DNA from: a virus
Virus record (IMG/VR): IMGVR_UViG_3300006931_000029
Span: 93,124-157,123 of that record
Strand: one strand, 5' to 3'
DNA: 64,000 bases
The translations under genes were made by a program, and so were the position numbers. How positions within the stretch are numbered: position 1 is the first letter of the stretch; each line of letters begins with the position of its first letter. Positions 3,770 to 62,314 of the stretch are shown here, one piece after another. A model generated the notes under the pieces. It ran no database searches. It was not told the origin of the DNA and was given only the letters and a program-made list of their open reading frames with translations.

Positions 3770-4086
3770 GACGGCGGCGTCCTCACCCCAATTTGGTAAC
3801 TCACGGCAAGCTTAGCAGCCGCTTCCGGCATCGTGTTGATTTCAGAGCGCGCCATGATAACGTGGTAGCAGCAACGATAAACAAGAATGGCGATCCACAC
3901 AGCAAGGACTAGCAAGACGCCAAGCATCACCATGACGAGATTCTGCCACGTTGGCGTGCCGAAAGCCCACCAGAAAAACGTGGTGATAACCGTGGCGATG
4001 ATCGAACCAGAGGCGAAGAAGTCAATCGGCCGAATGAAGCCGACTTGAAACAACGCTCTGGTCTGCTCGTCCAAGAGCGGTTTCAT
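3766..4086 (-). CDS. small membrane protein
   Basis: 106-aa ORF with two long hydrophobic stretches; overlaps neighbours by 4 nt. Confidence 0.4.
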   Translation of the reverse strand: MKPLLDEQTRALFQVGFIRPIDFFASGSIIATVITTFFWWAFGTPTWQNLVMVMLGVLLVLAVWIAILVYRCCYHVIMARSEINTMPEAAAKLAVSYQIGVRTPPS

Positions 4087-20628: not shown

Positions 20629-20968
20629 GACGAGGTTTCTTTTCTTTTTCTGGTGCGTTCAGTTTTCTGATGTCGTCGTCAGTGAGAAAGTCGTCTTGGT
20701 CGAAATCACTCCACTTGAGTCCCATCGCCGCCAGATTGTCCATCTCATCGATTACAGAATCGAGCTTGTCCTCTCTGACTCTGGCGTTCAACCAAACCTG
20801 GAGCTTCTCTAGGTAGAAGGCCCGGTGTTTTTGCCAACTGTCAGCAAAGTAAAAGTGCCCGATTTCATTCTCGATAAAATCGTAGGCAAGGTCATGTGCC
20901 TCAATGTCGTATCGCGGATGATCGTCAAAGGCAAATTCAACTAAGCTCTTGGCTCTCGAGTGTGGCAT
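20594..20968 (-). CDS. hypothetical protein
   Basis: 124-aa ORF. Confidence 0.4.
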   Translation of the reverse strand: MPHSRAKSLVEFAFDDHPRYDIEAHDLAYDFIENEIGHFYFADSWQKHRAFYLEKLQVWLNARVREDKLDSVIDEMDNLAAMGLKWSDFDQDDFLTDDDIRKLNAPEKEKKPRRAKLLQQPNAT

Positions 20969-21488
20969 CTCCCTTTACGTACGTTCGAATGCTGCCGAGA
21001 CAGAAAGTACTCTTGTTCGCCTCCAGCAGAATCCGAAGGTCCTGCCTGGTTATCGTCCCTCTATCAACCAAGGTGTCGATTGCATCCTTGTCTAATCCTG
21101 AAGATACACACGAAAATTCGGCGCTGTGACCGCAGCTAAATAGCCAAAGAGCAACGGCGTGACGAGAACGGTTGATGCCGCCGGAACAGTGGACAAACGT
21201 CGGAAGTCTTGCTCCAAAACAATAGTCAAGGGCTCGCTTGATTCCAAACAACGACGTGGTCGGCCACTTGGCGTATTCGTCAATTGGAAACCACAGCGCT
21301 TTGATCCACGGCGAAGCGTCAAACGTGAAGTACGGGCTGTCGGTGACATTGATGACGGCACGAAAATTCTCCAGCAACCATGCTCGTTGCTGGTGGATTT
21401 CTAGATTTTCAACTGAACCAATCGTGATACCGAAATCCGGAACCACGACCTTCACCCACGTCGGTTTACTGGAGGTCGTTAACGCCAT
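20937..21488 (-). CDS. dual-specificity/tyrosine protein phosphatase (CX5R)
   Basis: VHCSGGINRS active-site signature HCxxGxxRS. Confidence 0.55.
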   Translation of the reverse strand: MALTTSSKPTWVKVVVPDFGITIGSVENLEIHQQRAWLLENFRAVINVTDSPYFTFDASPWIKALWFPIDEYAKWPTTSLFGIKRALDYCFGARLPTFVHCSGGINRSRHAVALWLFSCGHSAEFSCVSSGLDKDAIDTLVDRGTITRQDLRILLEANKSTFCLGSIRTYVKGDATLESQELS

Positions 21489-23211: not shown

Positions 23212-25113
23212 TCACATCGGAATCACGGTCACCCTCATGTCCATCGATCCAGGAGTTAAATCGCCGGCAAGCCAATTCTGAAGGTTCACACCAACAGTTC
23301 CAGATGACACAACGTTTGCGGTCACGACGGCGCCAGTAGGCCAAGCGAAGCCGTCGATCCGGTTGACCATCGCTGCGTCGTTAATGTCTACACCGCCAAG
23401 CGGAACGTTCAGATCGGACGCCAGGCCGGAACCAACGGTTCCAAAATCGTGAGACACGGTTGCTGTGAGTAGCGAGATTGAGCCTTGAAATCCTTGAGGA
23501 CCTTGAAATCCCTGCGAACCTGTGCTTCCTTGAGCGCCGGTATCTCCTTGCGCTCCAGTGCCGCCGGCTGCACCTTGAAAACCTTGAAAGCCTTGTGTAC
23601 CCGTTGAGCCTTGAAATCCCTGCGCGCCAGTATCTCCCTGCGCGCCCTGGAAACCTGCTCCTTGAAAACCTTGCGTTCCAGTCGTCCCTTGAAATCCTTG
23701 GCGGCCCTGAAAACCCTGAGCGCCCGTCACACCTTGCGATCCTTGCGCACCAGTAACGCCAGACGGCCCGGCAGGAACGAAGTCAACGACGATGTCTTCA
23801 AGGTCGCCGAAAGTTCCTTCAGTCAAGAACGGAGACACCGTGAACTTCCTGTAGCCTGTTGCCGTCACGAACAGCGTGACGTTGAAAAATCCAAAGACGC
23901 TAGGATCAACTGGCGAGTAGAAGTGGAAAATACCCTTCAGAGTGCCTGATCCGACAGAGTTAATAGCACCAAGCCATGCAGAGACGTCGACGTTGTTGTC
24001 GTTAGTCGTGCTGAAATACATTTCCGTCACGGAATCAGGATCGGCGTTGTTGAACGCAATCAAGCCGAGACCAGGGTCTTGGTCCACGGTGGACGTCGAA
24101 AAAGCGTACGGTTGGAAGTTTCCACCGAGATTGCCTTGCGGTCCTTGAAACCCTTGAGCGCCAAGTCCGCCTTGATTTCCAAGCGGGCCCGGAATTCCTT
24201 GTGGACCCGACGAACCCTGCGGACCGGCGATGACGCTGGGAGCGCCTTGCGGTCCTTGAAACCCTTGGAAACCCTGAAGTCCCTGGCTGCCGACGTTTCC
24301 TCTAGCTCCTTGAAACCCTTGCGTTCCCTCAGAGCCTTGAATGCCTTGATTTCCCTGTGATCCGCGCAAAAGAACTTGAGCCGACAGTTCGCTAGGAGTT
24401 TCCGTAGACGTCGTGTCTGCGCCTAGAGTTCCTTCAATGTTCTGCTGCGTAGCAACGTCCAACATTCCGATGATGTCTTGGCGGACCTGTGCAAGATTAT
24501 CGACAGCGGCCTGCTGTTCAGCAGTCAAGACTTTCGCATTTTCGCCACCGAGACCAATCCCATTTCGATAATTCTCCTGTGTCCGTTGAATAACCGGTTG
24601 CGTGTACACGCCGACCTGATTCGTGGCGCCGCAAATTGCTCTGGCGCAGTTGACTGCTTGAATGCCAGGGCCAATTCTCTTTTCAAACTCCTTTGCCGCA
24701 TCGCTGATCATGCCGTCAACTCGCGCCTGTAGTTGACCCAATTTTGCGAACGGATGCGTGTCGAGATTTCGCAGCAGCTTCAGGTAGGCTTCGTTTACGG
24801 CGTTCTGAAGATCGATCAACGCCTTGCCGTTGAACGGCGGCAAGAGTCCAGGACACAAAGCTTGAAGCTGATTGTATTTGTCGATGTCAACCAGCACGAT
24901 TGCGGTTAACTTAGACGGATCGACCAGAGGAATGTCTAGGCCTGCGTTGAAAAGCAAGTCGGCGACTCGACGCAGTGCTGCGAAGCGACCAATCAACTTG
25001 TTAAGCTGGTCAGTCGCGCCGACCGCGATCGCGTCCAGCATGGCGCAGAGTTCTTGTGGCGTGGACTGAGGCATTTTTCTAATTACAACGTTACTTAGGT
25101 CTAAGACCTCCAC
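23212..25113 (-). CDS. collagen-like triple-helix repeat fibre protein
   Basis: two blocks of G-x-Q/G-x-x repeats (GFQGAQGSQG...), Pro-poor; contains an approx 110-aa non-collagen domain (…ATGYRKFTV…) also repeated in 46014..48248. Confidence 0.6.
   Translation of the reverse strand: MEVLDLSNVVIRKMPQSTPQELCAMLDAIAVGATDQLNKLIGRFAALRRVADLLFNAGLDIPLVDPSKLTAIVLVDIDKYNQLQALCPGLLPPFNGKALIDLQNAVNEAYLKLLRNLDTHPFAKLGQLQARVDGMISDAAKEFEKRIGPGIQAVNCARAICGATNQVGVYTQPVIQRTQENYRNGIGLGGENAKVLTAEQQAAVDNLAQVRQDIIGMLDVATQQNIEGTLGADTTSTETPSELSAQVLLRGSQGNQGIQGSEGTQGFQGARGNVGSQGLQGFQGFQGPQGAPSVIAGPQGSSGPQGIPGPLGNQGGLGAQGFQGPQGNLGGNFQPYAFSTSTVDQDPGLGLIAFNNADPDSVTEMYFSTTNDNNVDVSAWLGAINSVGSGTLKGIFHFYSPVDPSVFGFFNVTLFVTATGYRKFTVSPFLTEGTFGDLEDIVVDFVPAGPSGVTGAQGSQGVTGAQGFQGRQGFQGTTGTQGFQGAGFQGAQGDTGAQGFQGSTGTQGFQGFQGAAGGTGAQGDTGAQGSTGSQGFQGPQGFQGSISLLTATVSHDFGTVGSGLASDLNVPLGGVDINDAAMVNRIDGFAWPTGAVVTANVVSSGTVGVNLQNWLAGDLTPGSMDMRVTVIPM
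23470..23770. repeat. collagen-like GxQ coding tandem repeat
   Basis: 9-nt periodic cc(t/c)tg(a/g)aa(a/t)cc-type units; all frames open. Confidence 0.55.
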
Positions 25114-31100: not shown

Positions 31101-32897
31101 TTAGGTCTTCTTTGCCGCGGGCACTGCAGGCGAAGGTGTCGTTTCAACGTCCGTCACCATTCCCGCCATCTGAGCGAGTTTGGACGGGTCCATCTTCAGA
31201 AGCTTCAGCAACGGCGTAACGTCAACGCCAGCCGCTTTTGCTTTGAGGAAGAATTCAGTAACCATGCCAGGGATTGCGCCAGCGAAACTGGCGACGCCGC
31301 CGCCTTTGCCGTCACCGGTGCCCATGTCAACGATGGAAACATTCTTGATCGCACCCAGCGACGTGCCGAGAGGACCGAACATTGCCGCCAACATTTTAGC
31401 GCCGGCATCGCCGCCCTTGTCGAAGAGCACAGGAAGACGATCGAGTACCATGATGAATTTGCCTTCTTCAGATAGTTGCTTCAACGCCTCGGCCAATTTC
31501 TCGGTACCTTCAGCTTCGGCGAGAAGAGCAGCGCGTTTACCGTTGGCAACAGCGAGCAATCCTTTCTCAGAACCATCGGCTTCGGCAAGAAGAGCAGCAC
31601 GCCGACCGTCAGCAGCTGCGAGTTGGTTTGCACGAACACCTTCTGCGATGGCGAGTTGGGTTGCCTTATTGCCATCGGCCTCGGCTGTCAACTTGACGCG
31701 TGTCGCTTCACCTTCAGCCGCAGCGATCGTGCGAGTCTTGGACGCGATACCTTCACCTTCCTTGACAGCAGCGTTTGCTTTACCGGTTGCCGTGATTTCC
31801 AGTTGACGCGCCGTGCGTTCAGACACGGATTGCTGGTTATCGGCCTCAATGAGGGCAGCTTTGGCTTTCGCCTCAGCTTCGACGATGATTGTCGCCTGCA
31901 GTCTCTTTTGGTTGAGACTAGCCTGCTTTTCCTGCACGGCAATACCAGCGTCAGCGGCTGCGGCGTCTCTGGCCGCTTCTTTCACCCGGAGATTTTGCTC
32001 TTGGGCTGTTTTAGCAATGGCGTTGGCCATATCGGCCTCAGCTTTTTTGCCTTCAGTTTGAACCTTAAACTCGGCAATCTGAATGTCGCGTTTCTTTTCG
32101 GCGTCAGCGACCATAGCGGCGTTCTGCGCCTTTACCTCGGCCGACTCGCGTTCAGCGTTAGACGTCTTGATGGCGGTTTCCTTCTTTGCTTCTGCCGTGG
32201 CGATTTCAGCATCACGGATGATGGCGGCGGTTTCTTTACGGCCGAGAGCCTTGATGTAGCCTTCCGCGTCTTGAACGTCTTGCACGACCAGCGTGATGAT
32301 CTGAATCCCGAGACGGCGGAACTCGTCAGACGACTCTTCAAGAACCTGCTTGTTGAACTCAGAGCGATCCCGAAGAATCTGCTCGACGCTCAACTTAGCA
32401 ATGATGCTACGAACGTGACCGCGAAGGATTTCGCTAATCGTGCTCTTGATTTCTTCGGCGTCTTTGCCGAGGAATGCTTGCACCGCATTCGATTGTTCGT
32501 CGGGATTCGGCGAAACACGGCATGTGGCAACGGCAGTGATGTTAACCGGGACGTTCTTGGCCGTCGGCACCTGTTGCTCCTTAATTTCCACCTGGAAGGC
32601 AGCTGTGCTCATGACCTCGAACCGCTCCACGATCGGCATCAAAATCTTACCACCACCGGTGATGATTTTGAATCCGCGGATACCGGTCTTCTGAACGGAC
32701 TCCTCGGTGTAGTTGTACTTGTACTTCCGGCCGTAGAAGACGCCGATGCCGTTCGGCGGAACCGTTTTGTAGCGCGATGCGGCAATGAAGCCAACGATCG
32801 CGACGCAGATAACGACGGCGATGATTACACCTGGAACGAAAAAGCCACCAAGCAAACCGGGGCTTGCTTGAGCGAGGAAGAGCATGCTAGTATTCAT
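31101..32897 (-). CDS. SPFH/band-7 flotillin-like protein
   Basis: N-terminal TM anchor, SPFH-domain-like region, long Ala/Glu/Lys-rich coiled-coil (EA repeats) typical of flotillin/YqiK. Confidence 0.65.
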   Translation of the reverse strand: MNTSMLFLAQASPGLLGGFFVPGVIIAVVICVAIVGFIAASRYKTVPPNGIGVFYGRKYKYNYTEESVQKTGIRGFKIITGGGKILMPIVERFEVMSTAAFQVEIKEQQVPTAKNVPVNITAVATCRVSPNPDEQSNAVQAFLGKDAEEIKSTISEILRGHVRSIIAKLSVEQILRDRSEFNKQVLEESSDEFRRLGIQIITLVVQDVQDAEGYIKALGRKETAAIIRDAEIATAEAKKETAIKTSNAERESAEVKAQNAAMVADAEKKRDIQIAEFKVQTEGKKAEADMANAIAKTAQEQNLRVKEAARDAAAADAGIAVQEKQASLNQKRLQATIIVEAEAKAKAALIEADNQQSVSERTARQLEITATGKANAAVKEGEGIASKTRTIAAAEGEATRVKLTAEADGNKATQLAIAEGVRANQLAAADGRRAALLAEADGSEKGLLAVANGKRAALLAEAEGTEKLAEALKQLSEEGKFIMVLDRLPVLFDKGGDAGAKMLAAMFGPLGTSLGAIKNVSIVDMGTGDGKGGGVASFAGAIPGMVTEFFLKAKAAGVDVTPLLKLLKMDPSKLAQMAGMVTDVETTPSPAVPAAKKT

Positions 32898-33587
32898 TTA
32901 TTCGACAATAAGGGTTGATCCTGAAACTGAGACGACTCTGACTTCCCGCCCGCGTGAAATAAGCAACTCAGTCATCCTCGCTCTGGCGAAGAAAGTTGTG
33001 TATTGACCACTGACAGAAAGAGCAACTTCGCCGGTACCGCCTGGCACAATGTCAATCGTGACGGTGCCGGTTCTGCCGACAGCAGAGTCGATGTCCAAAT
33101 TAGACGAGGCTTGCTGGCTGTAGAGCATGCGCAACATTCCGATCATCAATCCGCCAAGGCTCATACCGGATGCAAGACCGACAAGCGATGAGCTCGTAAC
33201 GCCAAGACCGTAGACGGTTGATAAGGCGCCGCCAGCTCCGAGACCAACGCAGAAGAGCGCGATGATCTTTGGCGAAAAGATGCTCACAGTTGCGTGGCCC
33301 GAATCTCCGCCATGATCGGCGTCATGGTCGTGCTCGTGACCGCCGTCGCCGTGTCCACCGCCGCCGAATTGGCCGAGTATCCAAGCAGCGACGAGGTAGA
33401 CCATTCCAACTGCGATGCACAGCGAGAAGACAAGAAGTTGCGTTGAGTCACGCAGGGCGTTGATGAATGAATTCATGGGAATGTTTGAGAACTGTAACGG
33501 TCTGGAAAACTTTGAGGGTACGGAAAGTGTTGAGGACAATCCCGGTTTTTGCAGTTGTCGTCGGCACAGATGTACTCTTCGCGCCAT
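32898..33587 (-). CDS. NfeD/YuaF-like membrane protein (flotillin partner)
   Basis: His/Gly/Asp-rich loop, multiple TM segments, C-terminal OB-fold-like GRTGTVTIDIVPGGTGEVALSVSGQYTTFFARA...REVRVVSVSGSTLIVE; immediately upstream of flotillin in same operon. Confidence 0.5.
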   Translation of the reverse strand: MARRVHLCRRQLQKPGLSSTLSVPSKFSRPLQFSNIPMNSFINALRDSTQLLVFSLCIAVGMVYLVAAWILGQFGGGGHGDGGHEHDHDADHGGDSGHATVSIFSPKIIALFCVGLGAGGALSTVYGLGVTSSSLVGLASGMSLGGLMIGMLRMLYSQQASSNLDIDSAVGRTGTVTIDIVPGGTGEVALSVSGQYTTFFARARMTELLISRGREVRVVSVSGSTLIVE

Positions 33588-34576: not shown

Positions 34577-34936
34577 CTAAGTATCACTCTTCTGGTCGCT
34601 CCGAACTAGCTTGAGAAGGTGACCGTATCTTCCTGTGAATCTTTCCACCTTGAGCGGAAACGACGGCTCCTCAATCTTCGAAAATCGTGAAGCCGTCAGG
34701 CACGGTTCGTAATTTTTTGGCCCACCTTCAGGCGGGGATCGTCGACCTATTTTCTCGCCATGCGGTGCGAAAACGATTAGGTCGATGGTGCCGTCCGACC
34801 AGGTTTCTTTAACCTTTCCGAACGTTGGGCTATGATCGTCCGTGTGATCTTTGACCCAGTCTCCGGTTTTGAACGGAAACTTATTTTTCTGTGTTTGCTT
34901 TAGGGGCAAGTTTTTCCTTAAGAGCCAGTTCAACAA
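34577..34936 (-). CDS. hypothetical protein
   Basis: 119-aa ORF; 56-nt overlap with next gene so start uncertain. Confidence 0.35.
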   Translation of the reverse strand: MLNWLLRKNLPLKQTQKNKFPFKTGDWVKDHTDDHSPTFGKVKETWSDGTIDLIVFAPHGEKIGRRSPPEGGPKNYEPCLTASRFSKIEEPSFPLKVERFTGRYGHLLKLVRSDQKSDT

Positions 34937-43057: not shown

Positions 43058-43852
43058 TTACCCGATAGCCCAGATGCGAATCACACCTTGACCACCTGCG
43101 CCACCTGCGCCTGAAAAACTTGGGTTCGCGGAACGGCCACCACCGCCACCACCGCCTCCGCCCATGAAACCGGCTCCACCGGTTCCACCGCCCGCGCTAC
43201 CACCACCTCCACCGCCGCCACCCGTGCCCCAGTTTTTTGACGACGTTGGCGCTGCGTTAGCTGCGCTTCCGCCTGCTAACGTGCTGCCGAGCTTTCCACC
43301 GTTTCCACCAGCAACCGCGGCATTGCCACCTGTTTGGCCGGCGCCGTTTCCGCCGCCACCACCAGCGTCAGCTGTCGCCGGTGTTGACGCGCCAGTGTTT
43401 GCCCCAGCGCCGGCGACACCACCTTGGATTGTGGTGTTGGCAACGCTGCCTCCGTTTCCAGTAACATTTCCTGCACCGTTGCAGCCGCTTCTTCCACCCG
43501 TGCCGCCACCGCCGCCGCGAGCGCGGAGAATAACTGTGCTGCTGGACGTGACCGTCGAGTCGCCGCCCGTACCGCCTGTGTTGCCTGTGTCAGCTTGAAC
43601 AGCTGTACCGCCAGCAGCGGCCGATCCTACTGCTGCGGTCAAGCTAGACGCTACGTCGGCCGTAGCGAAGAAAGACGTCGCGAAACCTCCGCCTTGACCT
43701 CCACCACCTCCCGGATTTGTTACGCCGCACTGAGAAGAGCCGCTACCACCACCGCCGCCACTGCCAATCGCCTCGATGATTAGCATGTCGGCAGACGTTG
43801 GAACAGAGTAGCTGTTCGAGCCCGTCGTGTAGACTGTGAGTGTGACTGCCAT
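43058..43852 (-). CDS. Gly-rich paralog 1 (possible fibre/structural)
   Basis: N-term ...YSVPTSADMLIIEAIGSGGGGG, poly-Gly core, C-term GVIRIWAIG; paralog of next two genes. Confidence 0.5.
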   Translation of the reverse strand: MAVTLTVYTTGSNSYSVPTSADMLIIEAIGSGGGGGSGSSQCGVTNPGGGGGQGGGFATSFFATADVASSLTAAVGSAAAGGTAVQADTGNTGGTGGDSTVTSSSTVILRARGGGGGTGGRSGCNGAGNVTGNGGSVANTTIQGGVAGAGANTGASTPATADAGGGGGNGAGQTGGNAAVAGGNGGKLGSTLAGGSAANAAPTSSKNWGTGGGGGGGGSAGGGTGGAGFMGGGGGGGGGRSANPSFSGAGGAGGQGVIRIWAIG

Positions 43853-43855
43853 GTT

Positions 43856-44764
43856 TTAACCTTGTGCCCAAAAACGAACTACGCCGCCACCGCCAGCACC
43901 ACCGCTACCCGACGGATTTGTGTTGCTGAATCCGCTGGCGCCTCCGCCACCACCGCCACCCATGAAACCGGCAGAACCACCGCCGGAAGTTCGAGTAGAA
44001 TTGCTCATAGCGCCTCCGCCACCGCCGCCTCCGCCGCCATAACCCCAGGTGTTTGAGTGAGTAGGCGTGGTACCGCCGGGTTGGCCACCTGATCCGCTAT
44101 CAGCCGCGCCACCTGATCCGCCACCGGATGCGGTCGATCCGCCTTTAACTCCGCCGGCTCCGCCAGCCGCTCCTGCTGTCGTACCACCCGTGGATTTGCC
44201 ACCACCTCCACCACCACCGCCTGCAGCGCCTGCTGAACCTGCGACGCCGTTAGTTCCACCAGCAGCGCCGCCTGTCGTATTCGCAGCTCCTCCCGCGCCG
44301 CTTGTTCCGCTTGAAAGACCCGCGCCACCGGCGTTTCCGCCAGGTGCGGTTACGATCGCAGTACCGCTCGACGTAACAGTTGTAGAATTTCCGGCCGTAC
44401 CAGCACCACCGTTTGCCGTACCCGTAACGCCGGTGCCACCACCGCCGCCACCTATTGAGACGATCAACGACGCGGCTGCATCTGCCGTGGATATGCGAAC
44501 AAATGCGTAACCACCTCCACCACCACCACCGCCTCCGCCGCCGTTGTTGGTGGAAACGTTACTTCCGCCAGCGCCACCACCGCCACCGGTTCCGATGCCT
44601 TCAATAAACAGCAGACTCGATCCGACTGGAACCGAGTATGTTCCGTTTGCAGTGAAGACGTCTAGCTGAAAAAATCCAGCGCTAGCTCCTCCTGACGCAG
44701 CGTCAGCTGTCGACCAAAAATTTCGACAATGACTCGTTTTTGTAACTCTGCTTGATTGGATCAT
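43856..44764 (-). CDS. Gly-rich paralog 2
   Basis: FFQLDVFTANGTYSVPVGSSLLFIEGIGTGGGGG ... GVVRFWAQG. Confidence 0.5.
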   Translation of the reverse strand: MIQSSRVTKTSHCRNFWSTADAASGGASAGFFQLDVFTANGTYSVPVGSSLLFIEGIGTGGGGGAGGSNVSTNNGGGGGGGGGGGYAFVRISTADAAASLIVSIGGGGGGTGVTGTANGGAGTAGNSTTVTSSGTAIVTAPGGNAGGAGLSSGTSGAGGAANTTGGAAGGTNGVAGSAGAAGGGGGGGGKSTGGTTAGAAGGAGGVKGGSTASGGGSGGAADSGSGGQPGGTTPTHSNTWGYGGGGGGGGGAMSNSTRTSGGGSAGFMGGGGGGGASGFSNTNPSGSGGAGGGGVVRFWAQG

Positions 44765-45663
44765 CCTGTTGCCCAGATACGAATCACTCCGTCTCCGCCG
44801 ACTCCGCCGGTACCGCCGTTGTTGTTGCCGCCAGAAGTTGACGAGTGTCCGGAGCCACCTCCACCACCACCACCCATGAAACCAGCGCCGCCAGCAACCG
44901 CGTTGCCTGAAGTTCCGTTTGCGCCACCACCGCCGCCACCACCAGAACCCCAGTTAGTCGAGTGAGAGGTCGCAGCGCCTCCGTTTGCTGCTCCGCCAGC
45001 TCCTTCGCCACCATACAATCCGCCAGAGTTTCCAGCCGATCCAGTGCCAAGAGACGCGGCACTACTTGAACCTGCGCCGCCGCACCCGCCACCGCCGGCT
45101 AACGCGGCAGTAGGTTGCGTTGATGCGCCTGAAGATACTCCGATAGTTCCGTCTCCACCGCCTTGCGTTGTGGCTCCAGCACCAGCCGAACCGCCCGCGG
45201 CGTTCGTGCCGCCGCCGCCCGCACCGCCTGCGAGCGCTCGAATAATTTCGTCTCCTGAGCCGTTGTTGTCAACAACGAACGAAGGGTTTCCAGCAGCGCC
45301 AGGACTTCCGCTGCTGCCTGCTGTGCCACCACCGCCTGAACCCGTGCCACCCGCCCCAACCGTGTAAGATAGCGGGCCGGTTAAATTTGCGACAGCAAAC
45401 ATAACGCGAGCGTAGCCACCACCGCCACCACCACCACCACCGAACGCAGCAGTTGCCGTGACAAAGGATCGGCCGCCTCCGCCTTGACCGCCGCCGCCTA
45501 TGGCTTCGATCATCAACTGTGTCGCTGAACTAGGAATAGCGTAGCTGCCGGTTCCACTCGTGAAAACGTCCAACTGAAAAAATGCTCCGCCAGCGACTGG
45601 TACCGTTGTCCAATCTCTCCGTAGGTGTCCACCATCTTCTTTGTTAACCGTGGTAACGATCAT
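44761..45663 (-). CDS. Gly-rich paralog 3
   Basis: FFQLDVFTSGTGSYAIPSSATQLMIEAIGGGGQG ... GVIRIWATG. Confidence 0.5.
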   Translation of the reverse strand: MIVTTVNKEDGGHLRRDWTTVPVAGGAFFQLDVFTSGTGSYAIPSSATQLMIEAIGGGGQGGGGRSFVTATAAFGGGGGGGGGYARVMFAVANLTGPLSYTVGAGGTGSGGGGTAGSSGSPGAAGNPSFVVDNNGSGDEIIRALAGGAGGGGTNAAGGSAGAGATTQGGGDGTIGVSSGASTQPTAALAGGGGCGGAGSSSAASLGTGSAGNSGGLYGGEGAGGAANGGAATSHSTNWGSGGGGGGGANGTSGNAVAGGAGFMGGGGGGGSGHSSTSGGNNNGGTGGVGGDGVIRIWATG

Positions 45664-46013: not shown

Positions 46014-48248
46014 TTAAGTAGCGAACAGCCAGAGAAAACGAGGGTCGTTGCCGGCCACGCCCTGGAAACCTTGATTTCCCTGGAATCCTTGAAAGCCTTG
46101 CGTTCCCGTTGCGCCTTGAACTCCTTGAGGACCTTGGAAACCCTGATTTCCTTGCGATCCTTGGGAACCTTGAGAACCCTGCGATCCCGCAGGTCCAGCG
46201 AACGCGAATGTGAAACAGACCTCGTCATTCAGCGAGAACGTTGTACCGGAATCGTCCTGGTACGTGACAGCGAATTTGCGATAGCCGGTCGCCGACACCA
46301 CGCTTCCTGTGAAGATGAATGTTGCAAACGTGTTGACGTCTGCCTTCTTGTAGACCTTTATCGTGCCGCGGTTGGTAGACGATCCGAAGTTGTCCAACGA
46401 ATCCAACCATCCTGTGACGTCAACCAACGACTCGTTGAGCAAGTCAACATAAAGGAACGTAACAGAAGCATAGGTCGCGTTGTTGAACTTCAGGAAGCCA
46501 TCGCCAGGATCAGAGTCGGCTGTGTTGGTGTTGAAGAAGAAAATCTGCGTGTCGCCGCCGGCACTAGAATCACCGGACGAACCTTGGAATCCTTGCGAGC
46601 CTTGAGAACCCGTCGAGCCCTGGTTGCCTATAGACCCTTGGAATCCTTGCGAGCCTTGAGCTCCTTGATTTCCTTGAGCGCCCGTGCTTCCCGCCGCTCC
46701 TTGCGCACCAGTCAATCCCTGGAAACCCTGGCGGCCCTGGAAACCTTGTGCGCCTTGTGCGCCGTCGTTGCCGGGCGCTCCGGTCAATCCTTGAACACCT
46801 TGGTTTCCTTGGTTGCCAGTGTATGTCCACGTGAACGCAATGTCATTACCAGCAGTGAACGTCGTGCCTGAAGAATGCTGGAACGTGACGGCAATCTTTC
46901 GATAACCCGTCGCCGTTGTGACGCTTCCAGTGACGATGAACGTAATGAAGACGTTTGCATCTGCGCTCTTGAACAACTTGAGCACGCCGCGGTTCGTCGA
47001 CGAGCCAAAGTCGTCGATAGCATCCAACCACGTTGTGATGTCGACGCCACCTTTGTTGAACGTGCTCGCAAAAATCTGGGTGACAGAAGCGTAGGTCGCG
47101 TTGTTGAAACGGACCTTGCCGCTACCCGGGTCTGCGTCGCTCGTTCCGGTGTCCCATGTGTAGATTTGTGTGTCGCCGCCAGAACCTTCGCTGCCCTGCG
47201 CACCTGTAGAACCCTGATTTCCTTGGAAACCCTGAGAGCCCGTAGTTCCAGTTGAGCCTTGGAATCCCTGATTACCCTGCGAACCTTGGAATCCTTGGAA
47301 TCCCTGCGCGCCATCGGGAGGACCTTGGAATCCTTGGAATCCCTGACTGCCTTGTGATCCTTGTGCTCCCGCAGTTCCGGCTGAGCCTTGACTACCTTGC
47401 GATCCAGTCGACCCGGTCGCACCTTGAAAACCTTGAAAGCCTTGCGCTCCAGTTGATCCCGCCGCTCCTTGAAGTCCTTGGAAACCTTGGCGACCTTGGA
47501 ATCCTTGCGAGCCTTGAGCACCCGCTGCGCCTTGCGAACCCTGAAATCCCTGCGCGCCATCAGGAGGACCTTGGAATCCTTGAAAACCCTGTGCACCTTG
47601 AGAGCCAGTTGAACCTTGAAATCCCTGCGAACCCGTCGTTCCTGTCACGCCTTGGAAACCTTGACGACCTTGGAATCCCTGCGCACCTTGCGATCCCGTG
47701 GTTCCAGTTGAGCCTTGGAAACCTTGGTTGCCCTGCGCTCCGCTGATGCCATAAGTGAAGATCGCGACTCCCGTGAAAACAGGAGACGGCGCTGCTGAGA
47801 AGACCGTGCAAGTTAGCGTGACGGTCGAATTGATGTTGTCGAACGAAACGTTAGTGATGCTGTAGACAACGTGTGTCGAAGAGTTCGTCTCGAGATAGAT
47901 GACAAAGTGAGACGGTGCCAATCCCGAAAACCAACTCGAAGCGTTCTGACCCGCAAGGTTCGTTTGATTTGCGACAATGGCTGTTGCGAGTTGAGGGCTC
48001 GCATTGTTCAATCGGAAAGTTCCAGTCGTTGGATTTCCAGTCGTCAGCGACGAATAGGTGTAGCGCTGCGACGGCCCGCCTGCTGTTCCTGTCGGCCCTT
48101 GAAAACCCTGAAATCCTTGAAAACCCTGAGCGCCCTGATTCGCGTCCGCGTAATCTTTGTTGACTGCGTCTTTGCCATCAACCGGTGCACTCAAACCAGC
48201 CAACCGCTGGTTTTCGAGCGTATTGCCTCTTTGAATGATCGGAACCAT
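46014..48248 (-). CDS. collagen-like repeat fibre protein with three interspersed about 110-aa globular domains
   Basis: multiple GxQ/GxxG blocks; repeated domain ...FNNATYASVT...GSSTNRG...TGSV..ATGYRK(I/F)AVT... Confidence 0.6.
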   Translation of the reverse strand: MVPIIQRGNTLENQRLAGLSAPVDGKDAVNKDYADANQGAQGFQGFQGFQGPTGTAGGPSQRYTYSSLTTGNPTTGTFRLNNASPQLATAIVANQTNLAGQNASSWFSGLAPSHFVIYLETNSSTHVVYSITNVSFDNINSTVTLTCTVFSAAPSPVFTGVAIFTYGISGAQGNQGFQGSTGTTGSQGAQGFQGRQGFQGVTGTTGSQGFQGSTGSQGAQGFQGFQGPPDGAQGFQGSQGAAGAQGSQGFQGRQGFQGLQGAAGSTGAQGFQGFQGATGSTGSQGSQGSAGTAGAQGSQGSQGFQGFQGPPDGAQGFQGFQGSQGNQGFQGSTGTTGSQGFQGNQGSTGAQGSEGSGGDTQIYTWDTGTSDADPGSGKVRFNNATYASVTQIFASTFNKGGVDITTWLDAIDDFGSSTNRGVLKLFKSADANVFITFIVTGSVTTATGYRKIAVTFQHSSGTTFTAGNDIAFTWTYTGNQGNQGVQGLTGAPGNDGAQGAQGFQGRQGFQGLTGAQGAAGSTGAQGNQGAQGSQGFQGSIGNQGSTGSQGSQGFQGSSGDSSAGGDTQIFFFNTNTADSDPGDGFLKFNNATYASVTFLYVDLLNESLVDVTGWLDSLDNFGSSTNRGTIKVYKKADVNTFATFIFTGSVVSATGYRKFAVTYQDDSGTTFSLNDEVCFTFAFAGPAGSQGSQGSQGSQGNQGFQGPQGVQGATGTQGFQGFQGNQGFQGVAGNDPRFLWLFAT
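47170..47760. repeat. collagen-like GxQ coding tandem repeat
   Basis: 9-nt periodic ccttg(a/g)aa(a/t)cc units over about 600 nt. Confidence 0.55.
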
Positions 48249-48559: not shown

Positions 48560-51222
48560 GAGCTGAGGTCACGGTTCCAGGTGTATTGGAAATTGACGGT
48601 GAGGTAGTTCAACTTGATCTTCGTCTGAGCCTCGTCGAAAACGAACACGTAGCCGTTGTACTTCGAAGCGTTGATGCGGTTGATGACCTGCGTGTCCGGG
48701 TCCATGCCGCCGATGCCGATGGTGCGCCAATTTGTACCGTTCGCCATGTTCGTCTGGAACGTGGCTTGCTTGATGCGCGTGAATCCACCGGGAGTGTACG
48801 ACTGCAGCGTGAGAGGAAGTTCGACGTGACGGGCGGTCGATCGATCGACAGACGTTCCGATGGTAGCAGGAGCGTCGGTTGCTTCTGAGATGAACGCAGA
48901 TGCCCCAGTGACGTCTTGAATACCACCACCGATCAGGAACGCTGGGTCGCTTTGCGTGACGTCCACAACCGGCGTTGATGCCGTTGCGCTGTTCAGCACG
49001 TCGACCAACCAGTTGACGACCTGCGTCGTCGACGTTTCGATCTTGATCGTGATTGGGATCGTGAGCGTTGGTCCAGCTCCGATAGCATTGCCATTGAAGT
49101 AGACAATGTTCGAGGTCGTGGCAACGGTTGAATCGCTCTCAACGAATGAGAATTTTCCAGCGCCCGGAAAGCTGCTCGAACTGTATGTGACAACAGACAG
49201 TTCCGTCGTGTCTCGATAGACGTGAATCTCGGTTTTAACACGACCGCCTGTTCCGCGATCGCCAACAACAGGAGCTGTACCTTCGCGCCGCATCGCCGGC
49301 CGAGGATTCGTCAACACGACGAAGTAGGTCGGCAACGCTGGATTTTGACGGATAGCGTAGATCGTGTAGAACGCAACAGCGCCTCGAGTCGTGTCTGGAT
49401 CGGACCCGTTGAGAACCACCCGGTAGCGTCCATTTCCGCTGAACAAGGTGGGATCACTCAGGTCGAAGATGTCTGTTGGAAGGACGGTGAATGTCGACGC
49501 CGTTGCGCCTTCGATTGCCTCCCACTCGTCTCCAACCTCATTGAATTTCTCCCACTGATATGTCGGCGTGACGTAATTCTGCTGGACTGCCGTGAGCAGA
49601 ATGGACACCGGGTTGGACGAGGTCGGCGTGAAGTCGGTCTTCCAGTTGTCCCACGGAGATTCGCCGATGTATGGGATGGCGTTTGGAAATTGAGTTTGAG
49701 GATCGACGCCGTTCCAACCAGGAGTTAGTCCACCTTGGCGCTGAACTTGTGCCGACGGCGGTGCAACCAACGGCTGCATCATGTCGATCGCATTCTCGAT
49801 CTCACCAAACCACTGACCGGTCGATCCGTTGCCGGACCTGAAATAGAGAGTCGGGATTCCGCTGATCGTTGAGATTGGGGCGGCTGGTGAACACGTGACT
49901 TGGCGCGAGTTAGTGAACGCCGTGATGCGCGTGTATTGCGTCGAGATTTTGATGACCGAGCCAATGTCGGCGGCGGTGAACACGTATTCGCCTGTCTGAG
50001 CGCTGCCCGAATATGATAGCTCACCAGCCGTAGTCAAATTCATGTTCGCACCGACGCTGACCGCAGGTGGAATGTAGCTTCCGGTCGTGGCAACGGCAAG
50101 CTTTGCCGGAAGATTGCGGGGGTTCGTGAACGGATTTCTATCCGCTCGAGCGTAGAGTTTGATCGGCGAACCGGCTCCATTGCCCCAACGGTTGACATAA
50201 CCGAATTGAGGCCCGAGGTAATTCGAACCAGGAGCATACGGCTCGTTGCACAATTGGCTCCGGTCGTACGGCCGAGCGAGACCGTTGACGTCGACCACAC
50301 AGAGACCGTAGAGTTGGATTTGCTCCGTGCCGGTCGTGGTCGTTGCAGGCAGAACTGGCCAACCGGTCACCGTCGGAGACTTTCCATTCGGCGTAGCCGG
50401 AGACAGCTTGATGGACAGTTGGTAGGAAACCTGCAACCATTGTCCAGGAGATAGGAAGATGATGTCAGGAAGCACCACCCGGCTGAACAGCGTGGTCGCC
50501 TTTGGAGAATCTTTGAAACCCAACTCAGCGATTTGAACCGGACTCGACTCGAGATAGAAGTCGAAGGTCCTGAACATCGTCACTGTGTCACCATCAATTT
50601 CGGTACCGCACATGCCGTCACCGACCTGGTACCGCATGTTCATCGAGTATGGCGTGACGAGCGCCGTCTGATCGACGTTGTAGACATCGAACGCAGCCGA
50701 AGAAACCGTCTGAGAAACATCGACCGTTACTGTGGTCGTGTTGGTGTAGGCGGTGACTCTCGCAGACTTGTTGGTGCCGGGCCAGTAGATGAGCTTTCCG
50801 ACTATGGAAGGAGAGAAAGAGTAAGAGCCAGCAGTGATGGAAACGGTCGTTGTTGCTTGAGACGCATTCGACGCCGTGGTGACTTTGGTAGGCGTCGTTC
50901 CTGTTCCCGCTACGCAAAACTGAAAGGCCTGCGCCCACGGCATGAAGGCGATCTTGTCCAGACCTGAGTCCAAAATCAAGTTGGGTAACCATTTGTCGTG
51001 CTGAAAGTCCACGGACCCGTCGGCATTCATCACGCGGCACTTGTACCGGCCGCGAGCCGACGTAACAAACTCTTTGTGAAAGACGGAGGCGGGCATGTTG
51101 CCCCTAAATACGCAGGTCAAGCAGAGTGTAGTTAGCGTCATGGGCACCATCCACGAAACCAATCGTCGTCGCGCATCGGCTCTGGCAAGCCAAATGTGAC
51201 CTAGCGCTTTACCCGCCGCCAT
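48556..51222 (-). CDS. large hypothetical structural protein (fibre/baseplate-like)
   Basis: 888-aa ORF, Thr/Ser/Gly-rich, beta-rich composition; start uncertain. Confidence 0.5.
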   Translation of the reverse strand: MAAGKALGHIWLARADARRRLVSWMVPMTLTTLCLTCVFRGNMPASVFHKEFVTSARGRYKCRVMNADGSVDFQHDKWLPNLILDSGLDKIAFMPWAQAFQFCVAGTGTTPTKVTTASNASQATTTVSITAGSYSFSPSIVGKLIYWPGTNKSARVTAYTNTTTVTVDVSQTVSSAAFDVYNVDQTALVTPYSMNMRYQVGDGMCGTEIDGDTVTMFRTFDFYLESSPVQIAELGFKDSPKATTLFSRVVLPDIIFLSPGQWLQVSYQLSIKLSPATPNGKSPTVTGWPVLPATTTTGTEQIQLYGLCVVDVNGLARPYDRSQLCNEPYAPGSNYLGPQFGYVNRWGNGAGSPIKLYARADRNPFTNPRNLPAKLAVATTGSYIPPAVSVGANMNLTTAGELSYSGSAQTGEYVFTAADIGSVIKISTQYTRITAFTNSRQVTCSPAAPISTISGIPTLYFRSGNGSTGQWFGEIENAIDMMQPLVAPPSAQVQRQGGLTPGWNGVDPQTQFPNAIPYIGESPWDNWKTDFTPTSSNPVSILLTAVQQNYVTPTYQWEKFNEVGDEWEAIEGATASTFTVLPTDIFDLSDPTLFSGNGRYRVVLNGSDPDTTRGAVAFYTIYAIRQNPALPTYFVVLTNPRPAMRREGTAPVVGDRGTGGRVKTEIHVYRDTTELSVVTYSSSSFPGAGKFSFVESDSTVATTSNIVYFNGNAIGAGPTLTIPITIKIETSTTQVVNWLVDVLNSATASTPVVDVTQSDPAFLIGGGIQDVTGASAFISEATDAPATIGTSVDRSTARHVELPLTLQSYTPGGFTRIKQATFQTNMANGTNWRTIGIGGMDPDTQVINRINASKYNGYVFVFDEAQTKIKLNYLTVNFQYTWNRDLSS

Positions 51223-51601
51223 GCAACCACCCGATCAAGAAGAACGGCTGAACGCTCCGCCACCTTACCGGCCGAGCATCGATAGGATTTTCCTTGACAA
51301 ACTAAGCGAGTCCGATCGCTACCTGGTCACGAAACTGGATTCCGTGGACCAGCGTATTGAGTGGTTAATCGTGGTCGCTCTCTCGAGCCACAACCGAGGC
51401 ATCGACCTAGCGTCTTCTGTCAGAAAGTTAGAGGAACGTGTCGCCAGATTGGAACAGGCGAACGACCCAGAAGACAAAAGTATGCTCAAGTGGATTCGAG
51501 AGAATGTCATGGCTCCTGCTAAGATGGTCGGTTGGTTGATCGCCACCGGGATTGGAGCCCTGATCGTTGTTCTTCTAGAAAAATACTTTGGCAGCAAGTG
51601 A
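51221..51601 (+). CDS. small membrane protein
   Basis: 126-aa ORF ending with hydrophobic helix GWLIATGIGALIVVLL. Confidence 0.4.
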   Translation: MQPPDQEERLNAPPPYRPSIDRIFLDKLSESDRYLVTKLDSVDQRIEWLIVVALSSHNRGIDLASSVRKLEERVARLEQANDPEDKSMLKWIRENVMAPAKMVGWLIATGIGALIVVLLEKYFGSK

Positions 51602-52026
51602 ATTCACTCACCGACTACGTCAATCGGCTTCTCCGTCCTTCCAGAATCCTACTGGTTGAGGACGACGAAGCAGTTTGCGCTGTCATAGAGTCGCTAGCCA
51701 AGAAGTTCAACTGCGAGATGATGACCGTCCATACGGCGAAGGACGCGCTGAGAGAATCTCTCGAAACCAAGTACGATCTCGTCCTGCTCGATTACCAGTT
51801 GCCGGACGGCAACGGTGTTGAAGTGTTTAAGACAATCCGGGCCAAGTCATGTGACGTGCCGGTTTGTATCGTGACAGGCTTTCTATCCGAACACCTGATC
51901 GATCAAGTGAAGGATATTGGATTCGCAGTCTTCGTGCAGAAGCCGAAGGACTTGACGATGAAGAATCTGATCAACATCTTCATGACGTTCGGCATCAAGC
52001 CGAACCCGGCTGCAGAAGCCGGATGA
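51598..52026 (+). CDS. stand-alone response-regulator receiver (REC/CheY-like) domain protein
   Basis: ILLVEDDEAVCAVI...LVLLDYQLPDGNGVEVFKTIR...PVCIVTGF; start uncertain (GTG 51598 overlapping previous TGA, or TTG 51532). Confidence 0.45.
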   Translation: MNSLTDYVNRLLRPSRILLVEDDEAVCAVIESLAKKFNCEMMTVHTAKDALRESLETKYDLVLLDYQLPDGNGVEVFKTIRAKSCDVPVCIVTGFLSEHLIDQVKDIGFAVFVQKPKDLTMKNLINIFMTFGIKPNPAAEAG

Positions 52027-52403
52027 ACCTAGCCGAACATGTCGTAGATGTTTTGCTTGAAGCCGTGCCGTCGTCACTTCGAGTGAACCTAAGGTTTGCG
52101 CTTGATGGCCACGACGACGAGTTGGTTCTGCCCGGACTTGTGTCTGTTGAGAGCGCTCCGAAAAATACCTACGGTGGAGCATGGCGTTTGACGGTCTTCG
52201 ACGCAAAGAAAACCATGGGTTTACTCCACATCAACTTCGAGTTGGATGGACAACCAACTCTAGAGAAGGTTCAACAGGTGCTTGGGCCAGACCATGACGC
52301 GTACGAATACTTGCTCGGAGACATCAACGATTGGCTCGAATCGTCTTCCGGAGAATTTGCCACTGACTTCTCCGTGGAAGGCGTGTCCGCCCCACCCGCT
52401 TGA
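52025..52403 (+). CDS. hypothetical protein
   Basis: ATG overlapping previous TGA (ATGA); MNLAEHVVDVLLEAVP... Confidence 0.4.
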
Positions 52404-60287: not shown

Positions 60288-60920
60288 TCACGGTGAACGC
60301 GCAAGCATGTACCGCCCGTCTGGCTTTAACTCAAGCACAAAGTACCCGCAGTTTGGCGGATTCTTCTCGGCTTCAAATTGTTCGACAGTATAGTGCAGCC
60401 ACCGCATCACGATGATTCGGCTCGTGTACCCGTGCGTCACCAGAATCAAGTTATCCGGATGGTCTGGTCGAGCAAAATCTCTGTGCAACGTCTCGAGAAA
60501 AGTGGATATACGATCGAACACGTCTGCGCCTGATTCTCCATCGGGAATCCGGTACCAAAAACGGGAAAAGGCATCGCGCTCTTTGTCGATGCGAATGGCT
60601 TCTTCAGGATCGCGCAAGTGTCCCCATTCCTGCTCTCGGATGCGTGGGTCTTCCTTCACCCACGCAGGAGGTTTTATGCCAAGCCGAGAGCGAAGCATGT
60701 GTTCGGCCGTTTCCCTGGTTCGTTTGAATGGAGAAACCCACATCGCAAACGGCTCGACACCAATCACGTCTGCGAACAACCTGTCACCGGCCCAGAATGC
60801 CTGTTCCTTTCCTTTGTCAGTCAGAGGGATCAGGTGGTCCTGAGTTTTGCCTCTCGTCTCTTTGTCGGCGTTGGACATCGACTCACCGTGGCGGATGATG
60901 ACAATCCTTTTTGGCTTCAT
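60288..60920 (-). CDS. histidine phosphatase superfamily (phosphoglycerate-mutase-like) protein
   Basis: IVIIRHGESMSN (RHG catalytic motif) near N-terminus; second His region ILVTHGYT. Confidence 0.55.
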   Translation of the reverse strand: MKPKRIVIIRHGESMSNADKETRGKTQDHLIPLTDKGKEQAFWAGDRLFADVIGVEPFAMWVSPFKRTRETAEHMLRSRLGIKPPAWVKEDPRIREQEWGHLRDPEEAIRIDKERDAFSRFWYRIPDGESGADVFDRISTFLETLHRDFARPDHPDNLILVTHGYTSRIIVMRWLHYTVEQFEAEKNPPNCGYFVLELKPDGRYMLARSP

Positions 60921-60947: not shown

Positions 60948-61385
60948 GTGCAGAAAATCATCGGCTACATCACATGGGATTCCACGCCAACAGTTGGAAC
61001 TGCCCACGGCGTCCACCGGCTTTCGTTTATCGACGTCCTCACGGGCACAAGCATGTCGTTTCCTCCTGAGGAAATCATCGTTCAACAGTTCATCATCGCC
61101 GGCAAGGTCGCTTCGCGGTTGATTGAATCATTGCCGATGTTTACACCACGCAAACCGAAGCCGGACGGGTCGCCGTGGAAAGCCAACATCAAAGACGAAC
61201 CGGACATCACGATCCTCGGCACGCTTGCGAGATGGCCGATCCTCTCCGACCCGGCACCGGAAATGGAAGACAAACTCCTCTTGATTGCCCCGAAGCCGGG
61301 TGGAGTCGACAAAGTCTTTGAGGTAACAATCACCGGCCAATTTGCCGATGCTATCCTCAACCCTCAGGAAGGTCCACGTTCGTAG
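60948..61385 (+). CDS. hypothetical protein
   Basis: 145-aa ORF. Confidence 0.4.
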   Translation: MQKIIGYITWDSTPTVGTAHGVHRLSFIDVLTGTSMSFPPEEIIVQQFIIAGKVASRLIESLPMFTPRKPKPDGSPWKANIKDEPDITILGTLARWPILSDPAPEMEDKLLLIAPKPGGVDKVFEVTITGQFADAILNPQEGPRS

Positions 61386-62314
61386 TCGGTCAAGTCTCTC
61401 CACTCGCGCATGCTGCTGATAGACGAGAGGTCGACTTCTGAGTAACGCCGTTCGATTGCGGCATCAGAGCCGACGTTGATGAAGACAGCGCCAGGTGCCG
61501 CTTGATCAACGAACTGAGTCCACGCTTTGGCGTCATAGGTTGCCGTGGTAGGGAAGGACGGAAGCTCGTGCGATTTGACTGCACGAAGGAATGGAACCGT
61601 AGCGCTGATCAACTCTGCTCGGCCGATCTCGCCATCATGCATGTTACGAGCAACGGCAATTCCACGGGCTCTTGCGTTCGGCCAACCGATCTGAAGACCC
61701 CGCGTCATCGTGCCGGTGCTGACAGCGCACCAAAACTCTGGCGGTTCGCCATGAACTTCAGCGATGTCGGCGGCAAATTTCACGATGCCGGCCGTCACCT
61801 CAGGCACGCCTTTCAGACCGAACGGCAAGTACTTTGCGCCGTGCTTAGCGGCCCACTTTCTGGCATAGCTGTTTAGCATCGGCATCGCTGCAGTCCGGAT
61901 GAACCGAAGGTCGGCGCCATAAGCCTTGCAAACCGCCTGGTGCTTCGAGACTTCGCCGCTAGCAGGGACGAAGAAGACGGTCTTCTTCCCGTACATCTGC
62001 GCAAGGACGCAGATGGCTTCTGCCGCGTGGCCGACTCGAGGAGCGCAGTAAACCAGCGTGTCTTCCGGCGTGGTGGCAATCAGCTTCTCGGCCGCGTAGG
62101 CTTTGAAACCTGCCGGGGCTTTGTCACACCTCACAACGTTCAACGGACGATCATCAGTGCCAAACCGTTCAAGCAGAGATGCCGCGTCAGGCATCCGACT
62201 TTTGAAGTTCGTGCCATAAAGTTTTAGGTAGAAGTCACGCGCACCTTGAGCGTTCAGGGGAGTTGGAATATCTCGGTTGCTGGGATCGGCTGTGATCGTG
62301 AATTGAGGCTTCAT
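61364..62314 (-). CDS. PLP-dependent fold-type II enzyme-like (ACC deaminase/D-cysteine desulfhydrase-like)
   Basis: size about 316 aa and Gly-rich GxGxxG-like and Lys-containing N-terminal segment; weak, by overall resemblance only. Confidence 0.35.
   Translation of the reverse strand: MKPQFTITADPSNRDIPTPLNAQGARDFYLKLYGTNFKSRMPDAASLLERFGTDDRPLNVVRCDKAPAGFKAYAAEKLIATTPEDTLVYCAPRVGHAAEAICVLAQMYGKKTVFFVPASGEVSKHQAVCKAYGADLRFIRTAAMPMLNSYARKWAAKHGAKYLPFGLKGVPEVTAGIVKFAADIAEVHGEPPEFWCAVSTGTMTRGLQIGWPNARARGIAVARNMHDGEIGRAELISATVPFLRAVKSHELPSFPTTATYDAKAWTQFVDQAAPGAVFINVGSDAAIERRYSEVDLSSISSMREWRDLTDYERGPS

Follow-up and report, generated by a model that had tools for sequence, protein, structure and literature searches.

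A stand-alone receiver protein of a jumbo phage, conserved beside a small tail-anchored membrane protein, as a possible phospho-switch

Receiver domains are the commonest signaling switch in bacteria, and bacterial single-domain response regulators work by contacting other proteins, by passing on phosphoryl groups within a phosphorelay or by serving as sinks. An example of such a regulator in a hub or sink role has been described (PMC5964349). Stand-alone receivers are already on record in viruses as well, and PHROG 731 is such a family. Here we describe a stand-alone receiver (REC) gene in a stretch of viral DNA of 64,000 nucleotides (the window; positions 93,124 to 157,123 of the IMG/VR record IMGVR_UViG_3300006931_000029), which is part of a jumbo phage genome of ~225 kb. 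Like CheY, Spo0F, DivK, CpdR and MrrA, the encoded protein has one receiver domain, a complete active site and no output domain. In contrast to the bacterial single-domain regulators, it is phage-encoded, has no adjoining kinase or che genes, carries an extra N-terminal helix (alpha0) and is always coupled to a tail-anchored membrane protein (the partner). The interpretation that we favor, tentatively and at somewhat less than even confidence, is that REC and the partner form a two-protein phospho-switch at the membrane, rather than REC being a simple decoy.

The preliminary description of this DNA had read 51598-52026 as a CheY-like receiver domain, and these coordinates are exact. The Pfam scan that it had proposed as a check matched Response_reg (PF00072) over residues 17-118 (E 1.6e-19; 70.5 bits against a cut-off of 30.2 bits) and gave no second domain in the protein; neither of the outcomes it had named as fatal, a negative profile search or an absent phospho-acceptor Asp, applied, as the match is strong and the acceptor D65 is intact. 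PHROG 731 was matched at 8.6e-19, and a PDB search returned 185 distinct receiver sequences at E<=1e-3. An AlphaFold2 model from a 36-sequence alignment (predicted local distance difference test, pLDDT, 88.6; predicted template modeling score, pTM, 0.84) has the (beta-alpha)5 fold with five strand-helix units. Its top Foldseek matches are the solved receivers ArlR, GacS-D1, CtrA, PmrA and PorX, with template modeling (TM) scores of 0.74-0.88 and root-mean-square deviations of ~1.5-2 A for the solved receivers matched. The receiver is real, far beyond chance, and its profile match, fold and structural matches bear out the CheY-like, stand-alone character attributed to it. It is not a chemotaxis CheY proper: CheY chains in the PDB score ~34 bits against 50 for the top match. 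No CheY model is found among the best 25 of the 89 NCBIfam families matched, and there are no che genes in the window.

The acidic pocket and the conserved Thr and Lys positions of the preliminary description are present as E21-D22-D23-E24, D65, T93 and K115-P116 (Table 1). Their conservation was assessed in an alignment (A1) of the 13 RECs of the clade described below and the nearest cellular REC (P0014), and in another one (A12) that takes in distant relatives. T93 is followed by G94 (T+1) and F95 (T+2), and F112 is the aromatic switch residue. An active site that is both intact and invariant indicates a protein built to be phosphorylated, and REC is thus predicted to be a phosphorylation-competent single-domain response regulator. 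Purifying selection on the gene is evident across five diverged relatives (nonsynonymous divergence, dN, 0.13-0.32; synonymous divergence, dS, saturated; dN/dS ~0.04-0.15). A TTG at 51532 could in principle open a longer version of the open reading frame (ORF); two observations favor the GTG start, namely its place within an AAGTGAA junction that five diverged relatives share without change, and the fact that the proteins of these relatives begin at the corresponding residue.

When searching a large database with REC, we recovered 13 clusters at 62-100% identity, followed by a sharp drop to ~40% identity or less, where the matches are ordinary cellular response regulators. As all 13 relatives are 140-146 aa long and a single Pfam domain is present, the absence of an output domain, also claimed at the outset, holds; outside the core there are only the N-terminal helix (residues 4-12) and a C-terminal tail of ~12 residues after alpha5. 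The 13-sequence clade profile scores its members at 263 bits or more and the best cellular receiver at 59 bits. Several independent metagenomes yielded contigs with exact or near-identical RECs, which are 199-229 kb long, with lengths of 222-229 kb recurring; no close relatives were found in GTDB species genomes or IMG/VR, and no named NCBIfam response-regulator family came near its own cut-off. Database matches labeled "phage" were uninformative, being mostly bacterial contigs filed under phage names. Judged by these profiles, REC belongs to a phage-only lineage. Mimicry of CtrA was considered and rejected: the CtrA receiver is the top PDB sequence match, but it scores 46 bits on the clade profile, inside the range of 45-52 bits in which unrelated receivers crowd. 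The best GTDB locus is likewise a CtrA gene, adjoining a ChpT-like ORF that was judged by eye. With a generic CtrA score and no NCBIfam family close, no donor lineage can be named for REC.

The pattern of conservation extends beyond catalysis. Mean column conservation in the clade is 0.92-1.0 for the active-site strands and loops, 0.92 for alpha0 and 0.89-0.92 for alpha5 and the C-terminal segment; the more variable helices are alpha1 (0.76), alpha4 (0.72) and alpha2 (0.54). The alpha0 helix carries the motif L-x-D-Y-V-x-R-L-L-R-P, with an invariant P14 directly after. Both are kept in the distant relatives L027, L029 and L030, and the motif is absent in P0014 and in gp30 of the Alteromonas phage V22. 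As the most conserved non-catalytic parts, alpha0 and the alpha5/C-terminal face suggest that REC has a specific protein partner.

A candidate for this role lies directly upstream: the gene for the membrane protein precedes REC in every clade locus examined (at least 10), and the overlap of its stop codon with the REC start suggests translational coupling of the two genes. The partner is the better conserved of the two, with 81-94% identity vs. 62-79% for REC in the same genomes, and its dN is lower too. A full-library profile search and its follow-up placed it in a wider family of 106-141-aa proteins, comprising at least 31 clusters, and a hydrophobic C-terminal end (hydrophobic-segment threshold, 1.6) was present in all members whose sequences were checked.

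The pairing is also seen at greater distances. The gene next downstream of P0077, a partner homolog of 44% identity, encodes a 154-aa Response_reg protein. P0110 and P0102 are ~25-30% identical to the window partner and lie on contigs of 206 and 181 kb, one of the two genomes being an IMG/VR viral genome of 203 kb; both are followed, with an ATGA overlap, by stand-alone receivers (148 and 141 aa, respectively). A tblastn search with P0102 against deposited phages gave no match, nor did IMG/VR searches with the RECs of L027 and L030. Among the distant pairs, L029 and L030 have the ATGA overlap and L027 has adjacent stop and start codons. Their receivers are 22-34% identical to the window REC; on the clade profile, those of L027 and L030 reach 126 and 92 bits, with cellular RECs at 59 or below. 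Because these two outscore any cellular receiver, REC and the partner must have been inherited together. Taken together, the conserved coupling, the higher conservation of the partner, the deep co-inheritance and the conserved non-catalytic surfaces argue for a specific partner, most simply the co-translated membrane protein.

The distant pairs also include natural variants of the acceptor site. The Asp is kept in the window clade, L027 and L029, and is replaced by Glu in L030 (F-I-E-M-A-L-A-D-G-S-G), despite which the L030 protein keeps the acidic pair, the Thr, the Lys, the partner gene and the coupling. In L034, the gene downstream of the partner (137 aa) has an ATGA overlap at the same junction and is collinear with the phage REC profile (hhalign P 0.0012); in its product the acidic pair is missing, as are the Thr and the Lys. 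We consider it only tentatively a degenerate receiver, as neither a general receiver profile (P 0.32) nor the clade hidden Markov model (HMM; 2.4 bits) recognizes it. In the same locus, a 393-aa protein with a Pfam match to the AcrVA2-like anti-CRISPR family (2713..3894, minus strand) divergently adjoins the partner gene.

In the switch that we propose, REC would be co-translated with a small tail-anchored inner-membrane protein, of which the conserved N-terminal ~100 residues would face the cytoplasm. Phosphorylation of D65 by a host histidine kinase, an Hpt protein or acetyl phosphate would alter how the alpha0 and alpha4-beta5-alpha5/C-terminal surfaces of REC engage the partner, and would so tie a membrane function of the phage to the signaling or energy state of the host. 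Lysis timing or envelope exclusion are our leading guesses for this function, based on the position beside tail-fiber genes and a weak XhlA-like architecture of the partner.

A host donor is suggested by what the phage DNA holds. We found no HisKA, HATPase_c or Hpt domain in the window, the 10 kb to its right and ~4 kb to its left (~78 kb of the ~225 kb), nor within +/-4-10 kb of eight related loci, and the REC locus is without the adjacent kinase or Hpt gene of a classical two-component operon. With no phage kinase in the DNA examined, the likeliest donor would be acetyl phosphate or a kinase or Hpt protein of the host. The partner itself, as an Hpt/DHp-like phosphodonor acting via His57, is disfavored: this residue is invariant only in the close clade and is Tyr, Gly or Asn in the wider family, and the partner matched no Hpt or HisKA profile. 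A phosphatase-type gene of the window, His_Phos_1, was considered as a SixA-type phosphohistidine phosphatase for REC and rejected, the nearest NCBIfam models being of the CobC/PGAM type and SixA scoring 22.8 bits; this gene and the Metallophos gene are conserved in related phages.

Several observations weigh against the proposed switch. Binding of REC to its partner, the phosphoryl donor and the membrane function that the switch would control are what we infer from the comparative data, and for the contact in particular this counts against the proposal, as co-translation could reflect shared timing rather than contact. The partner is predicted to be helical, with three helices, in a model of low confidence (pLDDT 59.5). 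Its matches to XhlA (PF10779; 16 bits, sub-threshold against a cut-off of 34.7, E 0.014) and phrog_1193 (E 6.8e-4; 5 of 17 family members match, at best 4.9e-5) cover residues 64-119 and are limited to the close clade, with none in the wider partner subfamily. No holin, multi-transmembrane holin-like protein, endolysin or spanin adjoining the pair was recognized by Pfam, PHROG or hydrophobicity. The partner occurs without REC in L028, L032 and L033, so that REC is dispensable for it, and the Asp-to-Glu variant rests on one contig (L030). Finally, the remaining ~140 kb of the genome may possibly encode a kinase. The idea of a lysis-cassette context was dropped, given the sub-threshold XhlA similarity and the lack of a lysis gene beside the pair.

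The mechanism offered in the preliminary description was a phosphate sink or decoy, in which REC would compete with a host regulator for its kinase or Hpt protein and drain or block the phosphorelay, and the membrane partner would merely keep REC near membrane kinases. We regard this as unlikely, yet as a serious contender. It agrees with an acceptor site that is intact in all 13 clade members, with the lack of an output domain and with the absence of a phage kinase from the ~78 kb. The small T+1 residue G94 also fits, as such residues favor active-site access in receivers, and alpha1, the usual kinase-docking helix, varies among the relatives as would be expected if it tracked different host kinases. 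In contrast, the L030 protein, at 92 bits a clear member of the family, retains its partner and coupling and cannot act as a sink, since Glu cannot drain phosphate. Outside the catalytic residues, conservation peaks in alpha0 and alpha5/C-terminus instead of in mimicry of a host regulator, no NCBIfam response-regulator family is approached and CtrA is not specially close; moreover, a sink accounts neither for a partner that is better conserved than REC nor for the extra helix or the Glu variant. A sink role in the window clade, where D65 is invariant, is possible and less favored. The earlier interpretation is thus partly supported, and its mechanism appears a poorer fit to the comparative evidence than a switch acting with the membrane partner.

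Two further explanations place the phosphoryl chemistry elsewhere, or do without it. A kinase or Hpt gene in the other ~140 kb would make REC part of a phage-encoded two-component system or phosphorelay, which we hold to be improbable. REC is matched by PHROGs 5982 and 20458, both of them families of long, kinase-type proteins, BFVD lists viral histidine kinases and jumbo phages are rich in regulatory genes; however, a regulator gene usually has that of its cognate kinase as a neighbor, and the search of the window, its flanks and the eight related loci brought up no kinase gene. There is a slightly smaller chance that REC is a phosphorylation-independent adaptor or pseudo-receiver, the fold of which binds the partner or a host target (a protease or envelope machinery) and the Asp of which is structural. 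The Glu at the acceptor site of L030 and the gene at the same position in L034, collinear with the REC profile and devoid of acidic pair, Thr and Lys, are in line with such a role, but E21, D22, D65, T93 and K115-P116 are invariant in the window clade despite saturated synonymous divergence, which argues that the active-site chemistry is used, and the L034 protein is not recognizably a REC by the general profile or the clade HMM. Least credible by far is a cREC-type enzyme that processes cyclic phosphates and is linked to NAD+/ADP-ribose conflict systems. REC does come from a jumbo phage, and its Pfam list includes PF20274, but at 16.1 bits against a cut-off of 27, compared with 70.5 bits for Response_reg. 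The cREC entry in BFVD matches the REC model only at TM 0.46 (E 6e-3), and no NAD+/ADP-ribose-processing neighbors were found; the profile scores effectively refute this identity.

A more far-reaching version of the membrane switch, which we consider unlikely, is that the pair constitutes an undescribed phage sensory module that would read either the acetyl-phosphate pool or what a host kinase phosphorylates, via His-Asp phosphotransfer, and gate a membrane event, for example the timing of lysis or exclusion at the envelope, with the Glu lineages locked on. Phage-encoded quorum-sensing receptors eavesdrop in a comparable manner. If the module does sense or rewire host phospho-signaling, it would represent a new route of phage-host communication; a REC that does no more than drain phosphate would even so be the first viral sink to be characterized. 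In either case, a single domain annotation becomes a defined, testable two-gene module, which recurs in large phage genomes from many metagenomes.

The operon has a facultative third gene: L001-L004 and L017 have a call for it, and L005-L007, L018 and L019 lack it. Its product in the window is 49% identical to the L017 copy and matched no known family in Pfam, PHROG or NCBIfam. The RECs P0007, P0008 and P0010 (loci L005 and L019, without the third gene) end in VSAPP(A/L/I), and the same residues end the third protein of the window. This shared VSAPPA ending suggests that an in-frame deletion fused REC to the last codons of a lost third gene.

Upstream of the pair, the divergent intergenic region with its conserved block (Table 1) is a putative control region. 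The block occurs once in the window, with one further match at two mismatches, which is the chance level, and a search for sigma-70- and sigma-54-like promoters upstream of the pair found none. An imperfect inverted repeat, CCTAAATAC ... GTATTTA, is present at 51096..51141 and in L005, L017 and L018 (alignment A7). It surrounds alternative starts of the 850-888-aa tail-side gene, on the start of which gene callers disagree, and may serve regulation in the divergent region.

With regard to the wider genome, REC lies among phage-type genes of a jumbo phage, as the preliminary description had presumed in calling it a phage gene. The window encodes a family A DNA polymerase (PolA) and a DnaB-type helicase, as well as a RecA-like protein, HU, Fpg and a phage metallopeptidase. 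Cultured phages are distant (PolA at most 27% identical), and the 888-aa tail-side protein had no match. The Peptidase_S77 gene supports the presence of a probable T4-like head-maturation pathway. The three glycine-rich paralogs adjoin a collagen-repeat tail fiber gene (46014..48248), and their number and content vary among relatives. The dehydratase-like protein and the 2OG-Fe(II) oxygenase are metabolic or modification genes. The amber-suppressor tRNA prompted a check for stop-codon recoding. Under the standard code, coding density in the window is 95.6%, and of 92 rough gene calls only 8 terminate in TAG; these 64 kb thus show no evidence of TAG recoding on a large scale, and the REC ORF is unaffected. 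The 96-nt tRNA-like gene has a large insertion or a long variable region, and its identity is uncertain.

Table 1. Features of the REC locus and of the remainder of the window (coordinates in the window unless another locus is named; a dot denotes a feature without strand).
Feature	Coordinates	Strand	Remarks
Divergent intergenic region	51142..51220	.	Between minus-strand tail-fiber-side gene and partner/REC operon
Conserved block GGCAAGC-N6-TGACCTAG	51184..51204	.	Alignment of five relatives
Partner gene, 126-aa tail-anchored protein	51221..51601	+	Single C-terminal hydrophobic anchor, residues 102-120
GTGA overlap, REC start over partner stop	51598..51601	+	AAGTGAA junction invariant in 5 diverged phages
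Stand-alone receiver (REC) gene	51598..52026	+	142 aa; GTG start 51598-51600, TGA stop 52024-52026
alpha0, extra N-terminal helix before beta1, residues 4-12	51607..51633	+	AlphaFold2 model
E21-D22, metal-binding acidic pair (CheY D12/D13 equivalents)	51658..51663	+	Invariant in A1; codons read directly
D65, phospho-acceptor Asp, beta3 end	51790..51792	+	Invariant in 13/13 clade members and P0014
T93, conserved Thr/Ser, beta4 end	51874..51876	+	Invariant in A1; T or S in distant relatives
K115-P116, conserved Lys at beta5 end, then Pro	51940..51945	+	Invariant in A1; K115 invariant in A12
Third operon gene, facultative	52023..52403	+	126 aa; ATG overlaps REC stop (ATGA)
Peptidase_S77 (T4 gp21-type) prohead protease	1..304, continued in L020 1230..2873	-	547 aa; cut by left window edge
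2OG-Fe(II) oxygenase	3086..3769	-	
Weak dual-specificity-phosphatase-like gene	20937..21488	-	Phosphatase-type
Collagen-repeat tail-fiber gene	23212..25113		PHROG/profile match
SPFH/Band-7 (stomatin-like) protein	31101..32897	-	
NfeD-like membrane protein	32898..33587	-	
AAA ATPase (ATP-dependent protease-like)	34881..36743	-	
tRNA, anticodon CUA (amber suppressor)	39458..39533	+	ARAGORN label 'Pyl'; Rfam tRNA 65.8 bits, well-formed
tRNA-like gene, 96 nt	40690..40785	+	ARAGORN tRNA-Glu(UUC); Rfam only 31.6 bits
Metallophos gene	42196..42795	-	Phosphatase-type
Three consecutive glycine-rich paralogs (264, 302, 300 aa)	43058..45663	-	Weak minor-tail/tail-fiber-assembly matches
Collagen-repeat tail-fiber gene	46014..48248		PHROG/profile match
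His_Phos_1 gene	60288..60920	-	Phosphatase-type
Threonine/serine dehydratase-like (phrog_7093, 9.6e-55)	61364..62314	-	

Among viral receivers, BFVD holds ~28 receiver-fold matches to the REC model, including phage proteins of 143-153 aa. The CheY-like proteins of the Alteromonas phages V22 (gp30, MN877442) and A5 (gp11) have been annotated as class II auxiliary metabolic genes (PMC7289586, PMC10579305). Similar to the window REC, these are stand-alone receivers (147-149 aa), in cultured phages, located next to tail-fiber genes (PMC7289586, PMC10579305) and flanked by small hypothetical proteins (ORF29 of 125 aa and ORF31 of 136 aa in V22; gp10 and gp12 in A5). V22 gp30 is one of the BFVD structural matches and its core is matched by hhalign (E 1e-9), and V22 carries a stomatin-like gene where the window carries an SPFH gene. 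In contrast, gp30 has no alpha0 helix and scores only 19.8 bits on the clade profile. ORF29 and ORF31 have no detectable homology to the window partner or third gene; the hydrophobic anchor of ORF31 is N-terminal, not C-terminal, and ORF29 has no segment above the threshold. In V22 (L035, 9960..11578), the receiver ORF30 stands amid ORF28, a permuted papain-like amidase, the small coiled-coil protein ORF29, and ORF31, in which an N-terminal membrane anchor and a coiled coil give a spanin-like layout. ORF28-ORF31 may together form a lysis cassette; in the papers published on V22, its lysis genes are not assigned.

For the partner only, a likeness to the XhlA-type lysis proteins (PF10779/phrog_1193) is apparent, as both are small and have a coiled-coil segment followed by a C-terminal membrane anchor. 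In contrast to these proteins, the conserved N-terminal 60 residues of the partner have no counterpart in XhlA, the match is sub-threshold and no holin or endolysin adjoins the gene. The cREC domain (PF20274) is a divergent receiver of jumbo phages (Iyer et al., 2021; PMC7824862). Like cREC, the window REC is a jumbo-phage protein of receiver fold that is not tied to a histidine kinase; it differs in being a classical Response_reg protein in a neighborhood without NAD+/ADP-ribose enzymes. Our literature search found no paper that characterizes a phage-encoded response regulator or gives a tested function of a phage stand-alone receiver. In comparison with these systems, the receiver type itself is already known, and what is new here is its conserved pairing with a tail-anchored membrane protein, its lineage-specific helix and the natural variants of its acceptor site.

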